Shown here: piece by piece, positions 5,250-18,194 of the stretch
Layout: every line of letters begins with the position of its first letter
Position numbering within the stretch: the first letter of the stretch is position 1
Source of the DNA: Vulcanimicrobiales bacterium
GTDB lineage: Bacteria; Vulcanimicrobiota; Vulcanimicrobiia; Vulcanimicrobiales; Vulcanimicrobiaceae
DNA: 31,139 nt
NCBI GenBank assembly: GCA_038215615.1
Contig: JBBQQR010000023.1
Span: forward strand, 1 to 31,139
Reading direction: 5' to 3'
The notes under the pieces: model-generated
The model's database searches: none
The model's input: only the letters and a program-made list of their open reading frames with translations
Told to the model about the DNA's origin: nothing
Translations under genes and position numbers: made by a program

Positions 5250-5657
5250 CTAAGCCGTTGCGGTGGCCATTACAGGCACAAAATCCTCGGCCAGACCTTG
5301 CAGGCGCACTTCACCGAACTCCGCGGTATAGGCGCCGCTCTCGACGCTCTTGATTTCGCCGACTTCCGGGACATCGGCAAGCTGCGGAATTTTCGAACGA
5401 ATCTCGTCGGGGATGCGAACCTTGTCACCGATGGCGAGCCCACCCTGCTCCCAGAGCGCGTTGAGGCTTTCGAGGAGCATCGGCAGCGGAATGCCGTAGT
5501 CTTCGCTGATCGCGCCGATCGTATGCGTTTCGCTGATCGCGCAATTCGAGCAGCCGCCTAAATGGAATTTCGCAAAAACGCGGCGCGCCCCGGCGTGCAT
5601 TTTGAAGGCTTCGTCGACGGTCATTTCCGGAGTGAATTGCTGTTGGGTCATAGCCAT
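5250..5657 (-). CDS. CxxC redox-disulfide domain protein (DUF1858/ScdA-N-like) with small beta-barrel C-terminal domain
   Basis: MTVDEA...ARRVF.KFHLGGCSNCAISETHTI...YGIP...LLESLN resembles DUF1858; C-terminal IGDKVRI...VGEIK looks SH3/KOW-like. Confidence 0.65.
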   Translation of the reverse strand: MAMTQQQFTPEMTVDEAFKMHAGARRVFAKFHLGGCSNCAISETHTIGAISEDYGIPLPMLLESLNALWEQGGLAIGDKVRIPDEIRSKIPQLADVPEVGEIKSVESGAYTAEFGEVRLQGLAEDFVPVMATATA

Positions 5658-7172: not shown

Positions 7173-7904
7173 ATGTTTCCTGCGATCATGCTCGCGGCCG
7201 TCTTTTCCAGCCAGCAATGCTGGGATATTTTTGATGGCGCTCTGCGGCATAACGCGCAGGGAGCGCATCCGGCGTACATCAGTTACGACGAGCGGATCTC
7301 GGTCCTTGGGGATAACCTGCCAATTCTCTTCAGTTTGGCTCACGTCGACTACCGCGATGACGGAACGGCGCGCGTCCTCGACCAGCGGTTCAATTATCTT
7401 CCCATTTATACTAACCACGCCGAGCCGGGCCCCCCGGAGCTGGGACCTTATGGAAAAGCTCGTTCCGCGTGGCTTCCGTTTGAAGGCGCGCGGGATCTGC
7501 CGGTGATAACGAGCGTACACGTGCTCGGCAACGTGAGCTGCAGTATTGCGGGTATCGAAGAATACAAAAGCCACCGTTCGTATCATCTCGTCTTCGGAAG
7601 CTCTGCGCAGAACAAGCCGGCGATCAAGGCGATTTGGATCGACACCGCTTCGCAAGACGTGTGGAAATTGATTGTGAGCGGCTACGTCATGTTTATCGAC
7701 TCGAACCAATCACCGCCACTGGCTGATTTTCAGGTTGAGCTGGGATACGCGGGCCCATTTCTCGTTGTGAACCACGTCGTCTGGCAGCTGCGACGGAGGG
7801 AGTACTCGCAGTACGCAAATTATTTCGGCGAATATACGCTCTCCGGGTTTACTTTTCCAAACCAACTCCCGTCCGGCTATTTTGGAAGCGGAACGCAGCG
7901 GTAG
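7173..7904 (+). CDS. Hypothetical secreted beta-rich protein (possibly LolA/outer-membrane-sorting-like fold)
   Basis: 243-aa ORF with SD and promoter; short hydrophobic N-terminus; YHLVF...AIWIDT..QDVWKL beta-strand pattern. The fold call is tentative. Confidence 0.65.
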   Translation: MFPAIMLAAVFSSQQCWDIFDGALRHNAQGAHPAYISYDERISVLGDNLPILFSLAHVDYRDDGTARVLDQRFNYLPIYTNHAEPGPPELGPYGKARSAWLPFEGARDLPVITSVHVLGNVSCSIAGIEEYKSHRSYHLVFGSSAQNKPAIKAIWIDTASQDVWKLIVSGYVMFIDSNQSPPLADFQVELGYAGPFLVVNHVVWQLRRREYSQYANYFGEYTLSGFTFPNQLPSGYFGSGTQR

Positions 7905-8078: not shown

Positions 8079-8155
8079 TGGTGGGCCATCCTGGTCTCGA
8101 ACCAGGGACCTCATGCTTATCAAGCATGCGCTCTAACCAACTGAGCTAATGGCCC
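8079..8155 (-). tRNA. tRNA-Ile(GAT), CCA encoded
   Basis: GGGCCATTAGCTCAGTTGGTTAGAGCGCATGCTTGATAAGCATGAGGTCCCTGGTTCGAGACCAGGATGGCCCACCA. Confidence 0.97.
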
Positions 8156-8167
8156 GGGGCACGGGCC

Positions 8168-8195
8168 ATTATATCATCGCGATGTACTTTTTCAA
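8168..8195 (-). promoter_or_regulatory. Strong sigma70 promoter of tRNA-Ile embedded in the 3' end of the upstream CDS
   Basis: TTGAAA (8195-8190), 16 nt, TG-A-TATAAT (-10 at 8173-8168); the -10 contains the TAA stop of the 79-aa ORF. Confidence 0.75.
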
Positions 8196-8408
8196 TGCCT
8201 CGTCATCGGCTTTGAGTTGGGCGAGCATCATGTCCCGCAGAGCGTTGGATTCGCGCAACATCTCCGCTCTCTCGGCCAACCGGAAGTCAAACGCCTCTCG
8301 CTCCGCATCAATGGCATCGTCCGTTTGCGGACCCGCGCCCGCGGCCGCTTTGGTGGAGCCGCGGGCGTTAACGTGGCGAGGCGAGTTTTGGCGAACGGGT
8401 TCGATCAC
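8169..8408 (-). CDS. Small helical hypothetical protein, paralogue of 8405-8785
   Basis: 79 aa; GTGA overlap with the upstream stop; C-terminal 42 aa align without gaps to the upstream protein (20 identities). Confidence 0.8.
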   Translation of the reverse strand: MIEPVRQNSPRHVNARGSTKAAAGAGPQTDDAIDAEREAFDFRLAERAEMLRESNALRDMMLAQLKADDEALKKYIAMI

Positions 8409-8785
8409 TCGGTGATCGACTCGATGAATTTCTTGGTGATTTGATTATCGGCTTTGCGTTGAGTCATCTGGACGTCGCGTAGCGTATTGACTTCACGCAT
8501 CTGCTCGGATTTTTCGTCCATCATTTCGTCGAACGCTTCGGACTGCGTTTGCATCTGCTCTTGATGGCGGATCTGCTCGCCGTACATCGCGAGCTGAAAC
8601 GCTTCGTTCTGCGCATTGAGCGCGCCGAGGCCGGCGTTTCCCGCCGCGCCCGCGATGTTGCCGGCCGTCGTCCCACCGGTCGTTGCGCCGGCTAGACCCA
8701 TACCGATCGCGGCGAGCGGATTACCGCCGCTTTCCAGCAGGCCCAATCCCGCGTTGAGCAGTCCACCGATCACATTGAAGCTCAT
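8405..8785 (-). CDS. Glycine-zipper plus coiled-coil hypothetical protein
   Basis: 126 aa; ATGA overlap and GAAGG upstream; Gly/Ala/Leu-rich N-terminal half, Gln/Glu/Met-rich helical C-terminal half. Confidence 0.82.
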   Translation of the reverse strand: MSFNVIGGLLNAGLGLLESGGNPLAAIGMGLAGATTGGTTAGNIAGAAGNAGLGALNAQNEAFQLAMYGEQIRHQEQMQTQSEAFDEMMDEKSEQMREVNTLRDVQMTQRKADNQITKKFIESITE

Positions 8786-9432
8786 AGTACACCTTCGTTC
8801 TGAGTTGAACCGTCATCGTTATCGACGATCGATTCCGGATGCGCATTGTCGCTGCCGGCGAGCCGCCGGTATGAATGAGTGTTCGGTTCCGGAGGTGCGG
8901 GCGGCGGCATCAGCGATGCGAACGTCGCCAACTGATTCACGTTTTGCTGCTCGGCCGGGCTCTCCGCGGCGAGATCTTCCTGCGCACCGCCGATCTGCGC
9001 GTAATGTCGCAGAACCGAATCGGCGTAGCCGAGTCTCCGGCCGTCGTGCCAGGGCGTGACCGTTCCGGTGGCATTCGGATCGCCGGCATTGTACGCGGAC
9101 AGCGCTTTGCGGACGTTGCCACCATAGCGCCTGAGCAGCCCGGAGATCATTCCGGCCGCATAATCGGCGTTTGCCTGCGGGTCCATGGCGGAGGGGTCGC
9201 GCGCGAATGTGTGCCAGCGATCGTCGATCTGAAAGAGCCCGCGGCCGTGGCCGCCGTCGCCCACGATGTTGCTCCCGGCGTTGGATCCGGGGCCGCCCGT
9301 CTCTTGGGCAGCGACGGCCGCCAGGAGCTGGGCGCTGACGCCGTGTTTTTGGGCCGCCTGGACGATCTGAGATGCGTAAGCGACGCCGTGCCGGGCCAGG
9401 TCTGAGGCGGCGGGGCTTTGCGATTCGATCAT
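8782..9432 (-). CDS. GH23/SLT-family peptidoglycan-cleaving enzyme (goose-lysozyme-like)
   Basis: AAQKHGV...LLAAVAAQET (catalytic Glu), GDGGHGRGLFQIDDRWH, ALSAYNAG, YADSVL; no signal peptide; disordered C-terminal tail. Confidence 0.88.
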   Translation of the reverse strand: MIESQSPAASDLARHGVAYASQIVQAAQKHGVSAQLLAAVAAQETGGPGSNAGSNIVGDGGHGRGLFQIDDRWHTFARDPSAMDPQANADYAAGMISGLLRRYGGNVRKALSAYNAGDPNATGTVTPWHDGRRLGYADSVLRHYAQIGGAQEDLAAESPAEQQNVNQLATFASLMPPPAPPEPNTHSYRRLAGSDNAHPESIVDNDDGSTQNEGVL

Positions 9433-9440
9433 GGCGAAGG

Positions 9441-9469
9441 TCTATACCGCCGACCAACGCGTTTGACAA
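9441..9469 (-). promoter_or_regulatory. Putative promoter of the GH23 operon (probably near-leaderless)
   Basis: TTGTCA (9469-9464), 17 nt, TATAGA (9446-9441), then 8 nt to ATG 9432; no SD. Confidence 0.5.
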
Positions 9470-9491
9470 GGCCCTGGGGCGGGTCTACAAT
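9463..9491 (+). promoter_or_regulatory. Near-consensus sigma70 promoter of the yceD-rpmF-fab-ffh superoperon
   Basis: TTGACA (9463-9468), 17 nt, TACAAT (9486-9491). Confidence 0.85.
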
Positions 9492-15727: not shown

Positions 15728-16732
15728 CTAGTTGTTGAGCGGGTGGTCAGCTACGTACGCGGCCACTGCAGTTGAGACGGCGCTTTGCACGGAGTCTCCG
15801 TCGCCCGACGTTTCGGCGAGTCTCGCTCCAAAGCACGTGTAGACGTCGAATACGAAACTGTATTGTGTCCGGCTAAAGAAGCCGCGGCGAACCGATTTGG
15901 ATGAGAGGGTGCCCGTCGCGACGGTGTTATTGCGGTCGGCGCCACAGATTGCATTGGCCGACTTCGCGGCGTCGCCGCTTGAGTTGGTGTTGCGCGCGGC
16001 GTAGCGTTGATTCAGCGCCGCGTACAGCGCGCCCGTAGCGTCGCTTAGTGCTGCGCTCGGGCTGCCGCTAACACGAACGACGAAAATGCCCTTAGCCGGC
16101 TTCACGATCGCAGACGGATGCGGATCCGGCGTTTGCCGCGGGTGCCGCTTGAACAGGCCGGCAATGCCGCCTCCGATGTTGGCTTGATTGCTGGGCAGCG
16201 GCGCCGGAGTCGCCTGTGCGGAAGACTCGGCGAAAGCCTGCGCTTTACTCTGCTCGCGTGCGACAATGCCGTCGCGAATGCTAATCGCCTGCGAAGTTGC
16301 GTCTTCAAAAGATTGGATTTGCGCGGTAGCCGCAAGAATTATTGTTCCAGTCGAAGTGTCGACCACTTGCTCGACCAGCGAAACTCCGCCGCCCAGCGGT
16401 GTCATGTATCCGGCGACGTAATACGACGCGGTCAGCGATCTCGCGTAGTCTAAGTAATTCGCGCGTTTGATCGTGGCCGGTCCCTGGAGCGCGTCGACGT
16501 CGCCCGCGGCGTTCATTTGGCTGATAAACAGTTGCGCGGTCCGCGTGCCCGTGTCCGAACGCATGTCGGTGCTGAAATCGAATGGATAGACGACGACGAG
16601 CGGCAGCTTGGGCCGTGCAGATGGCAGAACGGCCGGCGCAAGCGTAGATGTGGCTTTGGGCGCGGGCGGCGGCGCAGCTGCAATTAAGCCAACGGTCGAT
16701 ACAAGAAGAAGAGCCGCGAAAACTCGACGCAC
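15728..16732 (-). CDS. Secreted hypothetical protein (possible CsgG/TolB-N-like alpha/beta domains)
   Basis: Signal peptide MRRVFAALLLV; Pro-rich linkers; VVVYPF...YYVAG.M...VEQVVD..TG.I pattern. Confidence 0.65.
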   Translation of the reverse strand: MRRVFAALLLVSTVGLIAAAPPPAPKATSTLAPAVLPSARPKLPLVVVYPFDFSTDMRSDTGTRTAQLFISQMNAAGDVDALQGPATIKRANYLDYARSLTASYYVAGYMTPLGGGVSLVEQVVDTSTGTIILAATAQIQSFEDATSQAISIRDGIVAREQSKAQAFAESSAQATPAPLPSNQANIGGGIAGLFKRHPRQTPDPHPSAIVKPAKGIFVVRVSGSPSAALSDATGALYAALNQRYAARNTNSSGDAAKSANAICGADRNNTVATGTLSSKSVRRGFFSRTQYSFVFDVYTCFGARLAETSGDGDSVQSAVSTAVAAYVADHPLNN

Positions 16733-16805
16733 GAAGTCCTCTCTAAAGGGAGCTAATGCAACCCCGCTGGAAACGGCGGGGCCGCGTCATTCGTTTCCTC
16801 ACCGG

Positions 16806-17678
16806 TCACGAGGCGCCCTCGCTTTCCGTTTCTACAACGTCCTGCTCGGTGGGCCGGACGGGGTCCACAAGGGCTGCGACCGTCTCGCTTCCTTTTTCGT
16901 GGGCCCAAGCTGCACTGAGCTCGGCGCCGAAGAAAAAAATCGCGCCCAGCAGATAAAACCACAACAGGAGTACGAGCGGCGCGGAGAGAGCGCCATAAAT
17001 ATGCGTGAAATCGACGTGGACCGTATAGAACGCGAAGGCGTATTGCGCTGCCGGCCACATCAGTGCTGCAAAGGTCGCGCCCGGTATGCCGAAGTACCAG
17101 CGCACCGAACGGTTGGGCAGGAACGTGTACAGCACGACGACCACGATGAAAATCAGCAGCATCGAGAGCGCATACGCCAGCACCTCGGAGACGTTTTGTG
17201 GATTGGAAAAATGCGCGTACACCACGAAAAGCGATACGAGAATGGGCAGCCCCATGGCTACGACCATCACGATGCCGATGAGCGGCAGCATGATGAGCGA
17301 AAGCGCGATATCGTGAATGAGCGGCCGGCTCTTGGGAACGGCCAGCGCGCGGTTGAGTGCGTAGGCGAGTCCCATACAGAGATTCTTTCCGGCCCAGATG
17401 ACAACCGCAAAGGCGATGATGCTGGAGATGCCACGGCCATAAACGTACGTTTGAAGATTGGTCGCCACCGTTTGGTGGAGCGCCGGGGCGAATTCGTCGA
17501 CGAAGGCGAGAATTTGCTGATTCGCATTGGGGTAAATCAGCGACGCGCCGGTCAAAATCAGCACGAAAAGCGGGAAGATCGCAAAGAGCGCATTGAACGC
17601 AATGGCTTGTGACAAGAAGGCGCAGCCGTCGCGGGAAAACCGCATGCCGGCCTCGCGGAATGCCAAGATGAGTCGCAT
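16806..17678 (-). CDS. YihY/virulence factor BrkB family membrane protein
   Basis: AIAFNALFAIFP, YALNRA, LYTFLPN, PGA, YGALSA..VLLLWFY....FFFGAE; start moved to ATG 17678 (AGGA upstream). Confidence 0.92.
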   Translation of the reverse strand: MRLILAFREAGMRFSRDGCAFLSQAIAFNALFAIFPLFVLILTGASLIYPNANQQILAFVDEFAPALHQTVATNLQTYVYGRGISSIIAFAVVIWAGKNLCMGLAYALNRALAVPKSRPLIHDIALSLIMLPLIGIVMVVAMGLPILVSLFVVYAHFSNPQNVSEVLAYALSMLLIFIVVVVLYTFLPNRSVRWYFGIPGATFAALMWPAAQYAFAFYTVHVDFTHIYGALSAPLVLLLWFYLLGAIFFFGAELSAAWAHEKGSETVAALVDPVRPTEQDVVETESEGAS

Positions 17679-17708
17679 AGGGTCCTGCGATACTATCGCG
17701 GTTCGTCC

Positions 17709-18194
17709 ATGATATTCCCACTTACCGCTCCCGCGCTCGCGGTGCTGCTCAACGGGACCATCGTGCATTCGTACTCACCGGCCTACGTCGTGCGCGGGCA
17801 CGTCATTGCGCCGCTGGAACCCTATGTAACGGCGGTCGCTGCAAGCATCGGGTTGCGCGGCGCTCAGCTGATCGTGACGCGCGGCGATCGTTTCGCACAG
17901 TTACCGGTCGCAGCAAACCTCGCTCCGTCGCAATGGGCGCTGACCTATGTGGAGATCGCGCCGATCATGCGAAGTTTGGGCGTTCGCGTCGCCTACGATG
18001 CACAATTACGACGGCTAGAGATCGATACCGCCGGTCCCATCGTCGTAACGCCGACGCCGTTCAACGCCGCCGTGCCGGCGGCGCCGCCTGCGGCCGTTTT
18101 TACCCCCTTCCCGGTTGCCACGCCGCGGCCGCAGGTAAGCGGTAGGCCCGCGCCGCGGCGCACACCGCTTCCGGTCACATGCTGCACGCGTTAA
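17709..18194 (+). CDS. Copper amine oxidase N-terminal (stalk)-like domain protein
   Basis: VLLNG...PAYVVRGHVIAPL and TYVEI.PIMRSLGVRVAYD...RRLEI pattern; Pro/Thr-rich tail. Confidence 0.7.
   Translation: MIFPLTAPALAVLLNGTIVHSYSPAYVVRGHVIAPLEPYVTAVAASIGLRGAQLIVTRGDRFAQLPVAANLAPSQWALTYVEIAPIMRSLGVRVAYDAQLRRLEIDTAGPIVVTPTPFNAAVPAAPPAAVFTPFPVATPRPQVSGRPAPRRTPLPVTCCTR

Follow-up and report, generated by a model that had tools for sequence, protein, structure and literature searches.

Hrp pilins and needle subunits of type III systems (HrpA, PF09589; HrpE-like, PF28047; SctF, PF09392) are small proteins without a signal that combine a variable N-terminus with a conserved C-terminal helix. Hrp pilins stack via these conserved C-terminal helices, and their variable N-termini are exposed. 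A wall enzyme can be tied to such a structure: according to passages of PMC10880428, the lysozyme-like glycosidase EtgA is placed through binding the inner rod EscI. The NF-T3SS of Myxococcales is described in passages of PMC3459982 as a type III core with no secretin gene in its cluster, passed on vertically among free-living soil bacteria and lacking FlgBC, FliE and SctF. In the same passages, Abby and Rocha propose an ancestor that had no secretin and carried a structure based on SctF; they name no living example. The transition from flagellum to injectisome, together with the origin of the needle, is a long-standing question.

The locus described here encodes two small proteins, A and B, which resemble Hrp pilins and needle subunits in their small size, in lacking a signal and in pairing a variable N-terminus with a conserved C-terminal helix. 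They differ from them in having no HMM match, in being two paralogues and in having genes unlinked to the export gate, which here is of flagellum type and keeps rod genes. The machine found in relatives is similar to the Myxococcales system in a cluster with no secretin gene among the ORFs scanned, its vertical inheritance and its free-living soil hosts; unlike that system, it keeps FlgB/C, FliE and FlgF/G, and it would have a filament subunit. The phylum is abundant in soil and has a cultured member. Passages of PMC9758169 present the cultured Vulcanimicrobiota species as a diderm with thin peptidoglycan and with neither flagella nor a flagellin gene; the word secretion is not used in them, and supplementary Table S8 of that paper may list flagellar genes. 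In the accessible portions of the literature on type III secretion, flagella or sporulation in Eremiobacterota and Vulcanimicrobium, we found no publication on this system.

The window, that is, the whole stretch of 31,139 nucleotides analysed (genome G000 in our set), carries the following features at this locus:

8782..9432, minus strand: gene for a GH23 goose-type-lysozyme-like putative muramidase, 216 aa (ORF and Pfam SLT)
8405..8785, minus strand: protein A gene, 126 aa (ORF)
8169..8408, minus strand: protein B gene, 79 aa (ORF)
9441..9469, minus strand: candidate trio promoter, facing away from that of yceD (sequence and conservation across loci)
9463..9491, plus strand: sigma-70-like promoter of the yceD-rpmF-fab operon (11/12 consensus matches)
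8079..8155, minus strand: tRNA-Ile(GAT), conserved downstream neighbour of the trio, adjacent to the small genes at most loci (ARAGORN)

As the preliminary description had stated, the three minus-strand ORFs are coupled by 4-nt overlaps (ATGA at 8782-8785 and GTGA at 8405-8408). All three are genuine genes and evolve under purifying selection, with pairwise dN/dS of about 0.03-0.16 in the conserved parts. They are flanked by tRNA-Ile and by the divergent yceD-rpmF-fabH-fabD-fabG-acpP-ffh operon, and no GC anomaly was seen at the locus. A scan of 35 ORFs against Pfam agreed with the earlier statement that the window holds no secretion apparatus. Three other window ORFs (7173-7904, 5250-5657 and 15728-17721) are conserved or long and have no Pfam family; the first two are syntenic in many relatives.

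The trio had also been credited with a putative promoter of its own. The sigma-70 scan returned no match for it, its matches serving yceD and tRNA-Ile, but promoter-like boxes are recognizable by sequence: TTGTCA (9469-9464), a 17-nt spacer and TATAGA (9446-9441), 8 nt before the ATG. From this putative promoter the transcript may be leaderless. A G(G/T)GATAG-type element lies at a fixed distance of 19-20 nt from TGTCAA in 65 loci, these being the loci that match the search pattern used; the conservation of TGTCAA is not independent, since the yceD -35 box is TGTCAA reversed. When the genome was scanned for the trio promoter motif, 122 matches came up, 8 of them intergenic, without a clear regulon.

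The enzyme matches Pfam SLT (PF01464; E 1.8e-10, 40.8 bits against a cut-off of 21.3). Its best PDB sequence matches are the goose-type lysozymes 3mgw and 4g9s (E 3-4e-6), while the best NCBIfam match, IagB (E 6.6e-6), falls far under its cut-off. The muramidase domain covers approximately residues 8-146 and is followed by a Pro-rich tail. E44, D59, Q68, D70 and Y114 are invariant in 66/66 distinct enzyme orthologues, and E44, D59 and D70 align with the catalytic region of 3mgw/4g9s. By these comparisons the protein is g-type-lysozyme-like and a putative muramidase. It differs from the goose-type lysozymes of GH23 in being bacterial, at most 25-30% similar to them and extended by its tail. With EtgA-EscI and IagB it shares the GH23 lysozyme-like domain, a Glu with a hairpin Asp, and a gene position next to those of small helical subunits of type III-like character. 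According to the passages of PMC10880428, EtgA carries a signal peptide; the window enzyme does not, lies nearer to the g-type lysozymes of animals and occurs in one family only. The claim that it lacks a signal held up: within the first 35 residues no 11-residue segment exceeds a hydropathy of 1.0, and there is no signal-like hydrophobic stretch.

Protein A consists of a variable Gly-rich N-terminus, whose 44 residues are rich in Gly, Ala and Leu, and a conserved Q/M/E-rich C-terminal helix. In protein B, a disordered Pro/Ala/Arg-rich N-terminus precedes a C-terminal helix paralogous to that of A. The proposed paralogy was borne out both by 43% identity over the last 47 aa and by the alignment of the two family profiles (hhalign probability 99.4, E 4e-21). 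The core of A shows dN/dS of 0.03-0.06. In the low-confidence AF2 model (pLDDT 69, pTM 0.26), A is a single long helix spanning residues 41-125, and this monomer contains no needle-type hairpin. Foldseek returned no match for the model at E 0.001, and the VIA-align matches were all generic coiled coils (best Z 7.0, rmsd 3.9, 85 aligned); needle folds were neither listed nor excluded in these fold searches. The predicted complex of A(41-126) and B(22-79) scored 0.28 against a mark of 0.32.

No curated family was matched by A or B, and needle or pilin families in particular gave no match in Pfam, NCBIfam or PDB sequences; the A alignment retrieved nothing from the PDB under E 0.18. PF09589, PF28047 and PF09392 are not among the 25 families listed when 41 + 55 members were searched with E as high as 1, in a Pfam version that may predate PF28047. 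There was a weak profile match of A to SctB2 (E 0.04). In the ESM Atlas, after clusters of its own family, the named neighbours of A are HrpA (0.90, 186 features) and HrpE-like (0.85). For B, HrpE comes first (0.92, 179 features), followed by SctF (0.88), HrpA (0.86) and needle_F (0.84), and the six named clusters listed are without exception subunits of type III filaments. The recognition values of the two proteins, 2171 and 2137, are under the 2300 mark, so we treat this similarity as a lead, and as a single one because A and B are paralogues.

Homologues of A come from Vulcanimicrobiaceae and Baltobacteraceae, and the ESM clusters from Vulcanimicrobiota. A is present in 39/41 relatives, and its profile matches 228/301 genomes of the phylum. 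By group, the profile finds 203/219, 4/4 and 19/20 genomes in the class's three families, against 1/57, a weak match, elsewhere in the phylum. The small-protein family is therefore near-core in Vulcanimicrobiia. A whole-library HMM search gave 121 matches, and 60 inspected proteins, mostly from these matches, were all A- or B-like or fragments. The tallies include unpublished genomes (G036, G211, G231, G235, G242, G244 and G258), on which no conclusion depends. Families f1 and f2 carry the A-B pair between yceD and tRNA-Ile; f3 has a single small gene, located elsewhere and still often near tRNA-Ile. The enzyme gene occurs in 21/41 relatives, all of family f1, and the small genes stand without it in f2, f3 and some f1 genomes. 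The three-gene module as first proposed is thus syntenic in f1 and is not obligate. This distribution, taken in place of a rooted tree, suggests an ancestral unit of one small gene that was later duplicated, the lysozyme being added last. Additional copies were observed as well: an extra partial A-like copy in genus g39 (L167) and duplicated B copies in G102, G126 and G135. One database protein among the 121 matches (P0150) fuses the enzyme to A and may be an assembly frameshift artefact; in G016 (L009:6295-6900) an additional ORF combines an N-terminus resembling that of A with a stretch similar to the tail of the enzyme.

The same distribution bears on the proposal that the trio is an antibacterial set in which a wall-lytic toxin is exported with two small helical partners in the style of type VII (WXG100/LXG) substrates. 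Two paralogous small helical proteins encoded near a wall hydrolase are indeed what the two systems have in common, and the predicted hydrolytic g-type active site in a protein without a signal peptide would suit a toxin, as would the enzyme-A fusion if it is genuine. Nevertheless, A and B contain no Trp and hence no WxG motif, and the family alignments show no such conserved column. The model of A has no hairpin, and the host is diderm. The trio is inherited vertically in single copy at yceD/tRNA-Ile with low dN/dS, we saw no immunity gene or cassette swapping, and the small genes persist where the enzyme is missing. We regard this explanation as very improbable, and the type VII and effector branches of the preliminary description are not supported.

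In the relatives, FlhA-family matches fall into two score classes, and the near-universal one adjoins secD inside a reduced flagellar-type cluster whose anatomy was assigned by Pfam/NCBIfam. This gate cluster comprises flgB-like, flgC, fliE, a fused fliF-fliG, fliH, fliI, SLT, an unknown ORF, a rod/hook-like gene, fliM-like, fliN, fliP, fliQ, fliR, flhB and flhA. It is interrupted by metF and aspartyl protease genes, already has its own SLT gene, and is separated from the flgF-flgG-sigma28 genes, which are located elsewhere. The gate FlhA scores 630 bits on FlhA against 499 on SctV. FlhA-family genes occur in 34/41 relatives and flagellin in 11/41, the latter having a second, motile-type FlhA; flagellin was not found in the remaining 23 of the 34 carriers, which leaves 23 gates without a known filament. 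FlgI is present in 1/5 genomes tested, the flagellated one, and was not found in G003, G013 and G032. Neither secretin SctC nor SctD was detected among the gate-cluster ORFs scanned, two of which have no family. The same gene order was seen in 5/5 sister-class genomes read, 4 of them without flagellin. No linkage between trio and gate was seen in any of the Vulcanimicrobiia loci read.

Several other details of the gate genes were recorded. FliF is fused to the FliG middle domain in Vulcanimicrobiia (L034:12576-14039), and in the sister class the two are separate genes. Several apparently leaderless internal promoters precede flgB, the unknown ORF and fliQ (L034, L049, L070) and share a GGTAAC/GTTCAT ... 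TAG/TAC pattern 7-8 nt before the ATG. A promoter common to the trio and the gate cluster was rejected, as the motifs differ. G028 (L043/L044) carries a third, divergent FlhA/SctV-family system, in G049 a truncated copy of flhA precedes flhA itself (L120:3239-4090), and C-terminal-only FlhA-like matches occur in sister-class genomes.

The window genome itself has no FlhA-family gene. On contig C4, secD, metF, the protease and DUF3810 lie side by side in mid-contig, and a 41-codon remnant of the cluster SLT is left; the loss is a true deletion. It follows that co-export of the trio is unlikely in this genome. Compared with L034, L049, L062 and L063, the deletion (C4:111805-114817, L064) is a clean multi-segment one that spares metF and the aspartyl protease, and such deletions recur in at least 11 other genomes. 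Contig C9 (L125:8780-11206) nonetheless carries an intact operon of flgF, flgG, a 52-aa ORF, a sigma28-like gene and a 94-aa ORF, so known parts of the machine outlive the gate here.

Mid-contig gate deletions were found in G000, G001, G007, G008, G021, G123, G136, G175, G184, G194, G284 and G235. The last is unpublished, with its trio locus at a contig edge, and was left out of the assessable 11, as were G186, G196 and G260, where the gate gene was not found and contigs end or are rearranged. The trio carries lesions in 7/11 assessable genomes: a 24-codon deletion in A (G001), a nonsense codon in the enzyme (G007), a weak lesion, Leu102Pro (G008), a frameshifted B with A and the enzyme gone (G021), a truncated B (G175), a split A with two stops in B (G194) and a split A (G284). 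It is intact in 4/11 (G000, G123, G136 and G184). In a hand tally of f1, anomalies in A/B were present in 11/36 genomes with an absent or broken gate FlhA vs 13/184 with an intact one (Fisher p 3e-4), or 14/36 vs 26/184 with no-match genomes included (p 1.4e-3); related genomes are not independent in this tally, and fragmentation adds noise. Long-read frameshifts in G014, G015, G024 and G020 may be errors, and counting three of them as gate-intact anomalies is conservative. Gate-positive g28 controls were left out of the lesion rates because they had been picked from top profile matches. As a control, flgG is lost or broken in 5/11 gate-deleted genomes (G001, G008, G021, G175 and G194) and ambiguous in G123, and G007 has no sigma28 gene.

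G000 and G007 share deletion-junction DNA at 74-80% identity (20-26% diverged) with no resemblance left to the deleted genes. Between these two genomes, dN/dS is 0.039 for A, 0.033 for the core of B and 0.072 for the enzyme, and purifying selection on the trio is also seen in the gate-less G123/G175/G136. However, flgG is intact as well, with dN/dS of 0.07 between G000 and G007, and because it behaves likewise these values cannot separate a leftover from a repurposed trio. Pooled pairwise dN/dS is low everywhere, with no clear relaxation; between living genomes this measure is dominated by the history before the loss and does not discriminate. Conflicting gene trees suggest recombination in this genus. 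The expected association with type III or flagellar genes is seen as co-decay with an unlinked gate, tempered by a trio that is intact and under purifying selection in several gate-less genomes.

These data also bear on a role independent of export, such as envelope remodelling, dormancy, or a stress or developmental stage under an alternative sigma factor, with shared dispensability as the only link to the gate. The G000/G007 divergence with the low dN/dS of A fits such a role, although flgG does the same, and so does selection in the other gate-less genomes. The housekeeping location, the putative promoter with its GGGATAG-like element and the presence of SigB/F-, FliA/WhiG- and SigH-like sigma factors point in the same direction. 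Sporulation as the stage in question was rejected, Spo0A being found in 0/5 genomes with a control search positive in Bacillus subtilis, and passages of PMC9758169 describe the cultured species as non-spore-forming. Lesions are enriched where the gate was lost, and a cytoplasmic lysozyme without a signal needs some export route. Altogether, we consider an export-independent role unlikely.

A further indication comes from the sister class, where a helical, Q/M-rich gene of 75-113 aa is found two places behind flhA in 3/5 clusters (G049, G072 and G042, but in neither G092 nor G047) and beside flhA in 8/25 loci. The family occurs in 43/57 sister-class genomes, often in tandem and in up to 8 copies, and has no Pfam family. 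Its protein is the top match of the A profile among 902 ORFs (E 0.005). Profile-profile alignment by hhalign of A, B and f3 with this family gave a probability of about 1% and E 0.045-0.09, within the shuffled range, and the C-terminus-flush register it picked is not significant. The reverse search with the sister-class HMM found neither A nor B among 12,907 ORFs of G000. Ungapped profile scores peak with the C-termini nearly flush, and 1, 0 and 1 of 300 column shuffles attained these scores; the test is lenient because such shuffles destroy helical periodicity. Homology of this family to A/B is suggestive only. Its loci (L120:263-604, L116:9227-9481, L118:9175-9414 and L203-L227) are unannotated and multicopy, and a conserved 79-114-aa ORF lies between the helical gene and flhA.

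Thus, the type III pilin or needle branch of the earlier proposal gains from the ESM look-alikes, the co-decay and the sister-class position, and lacks a Pfam, PDB or significant profile-profile match. Also speaking against it are the missing linkage to the gate, the differing promoter motifs, the SLT that the gate cluster already possesses, the signal peptide of EtgA, the single helix of the low-confidence A model and the splitting of A in gate-positive genomes. We take the pair to be the candidate filament of the gate because its look-alikes are HrpA, HrpE and SctF, because it decays more often with gate loss, as flgG does, and because of the sister-class gene behind flhA. On balance we lean towards the view that A and B are filament subunits of a type III machine that lacks flagellin and has not been described before, with the lysozyme as its wall hydrolase. 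The small proteins would likely, if only just, constitute a new pilin/needle family; in this genome they are probably orphaned, and the trio is probably an intact leftover.

Co-decay with the gate would fit any dedicated substrate. A and B might instead be other substrates or regulators of the reduced gate, for instance translocator-like membrane-inserting proteins, a rod cap or a secreted checkpoint factor, and both the Gly-rich hydrophobic N-terminus of A and its weak SctB2 match are in keeping with this. Yet the best 19-residue hydropathy of A is merely 1.08, and the f3 and sister-class proteins have no long Gly stretch. The ESM neighbours are filament subunits, not translocators, and a size of 75-130 aa with tandem paralogues fits pilins. 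We therefore hold this alternative to be improbable, slightly more so than an export-independent role.

If A and B are filament subunits, the machine could work as follows. The reduced gate (FliPQR-FlhAB with FliI/H) would export rod proteins, then A and B. These would stack via their conserved C-terminal helices on the rod as a thin filament with exposed variable N-termini, A serving as the major needle/pilus-like subunit and B as a minor or inner-rod-like one. By analogy with EtgA-EscI, the lysozyme without a signal would leave by the same gate and open the peptidoglycan, hydrolysing it by E44 with D59/D70. It would be a later-added helper, presumably recruited by A or B.

Gene A is also a target of integration. 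Among genomes whose junctions were read, the split lies near codon 110 in at least 10 (G124, G159, G223, G214, G108, G185, G222, G177, G194 and G284), near codon 109 in G016 and near codons 91-96 in G179 and G203. Loci concerned include L010:4158-5576, L187:1498-3051, L092, L185 and L189. The elements are 7-71 kb long, and Pfam confirmed large serine recombinases in those of G016 and G179; in G179 the recombinase frame runs into the last codons of A. In none of the cases read was A restored upon integration. The splits also affect gate-positive genomes (G124, G159, G214, G185, G179 and G203). The splitting fits either inactivation of the appendage or expression controlled by excision. In other bacteria, developmental genes are split by serine-recombinase elements, and in this respect a split and unrestored A also agrees with an export-independent role. 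These observations indicate an integration hotspot.

The boldest version of the filament reading is that Vulcanimicrobiota harbour a living flagellum-injectisome intermediate. A motor-less flagellar basal body with a rod, a tiny HrpA/SctF-like A/B filament in place of hook and flagellin, and its own exported lysozyme would then represent the secretin-less, SctF-bearing stage postulated by Abby and Rocha, repeatedly switched off by serine-recombinase insertion into the pilin gene. We put this forward tentatively, as an idea that may well be wrong. A phylum-wide flagellin-less gate with rod genes and a candidate pilin makes the secretin-less step testable, and it offers a first functional handle on a gene family that spans the class and lacks annotation.

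The window genome additionally contains, on contig C15 (25981-36775, L128), a locus that by eye is type IV pilus-like, with an embedded SigB/F-like sigma factor gene assigned by NCBIfam.
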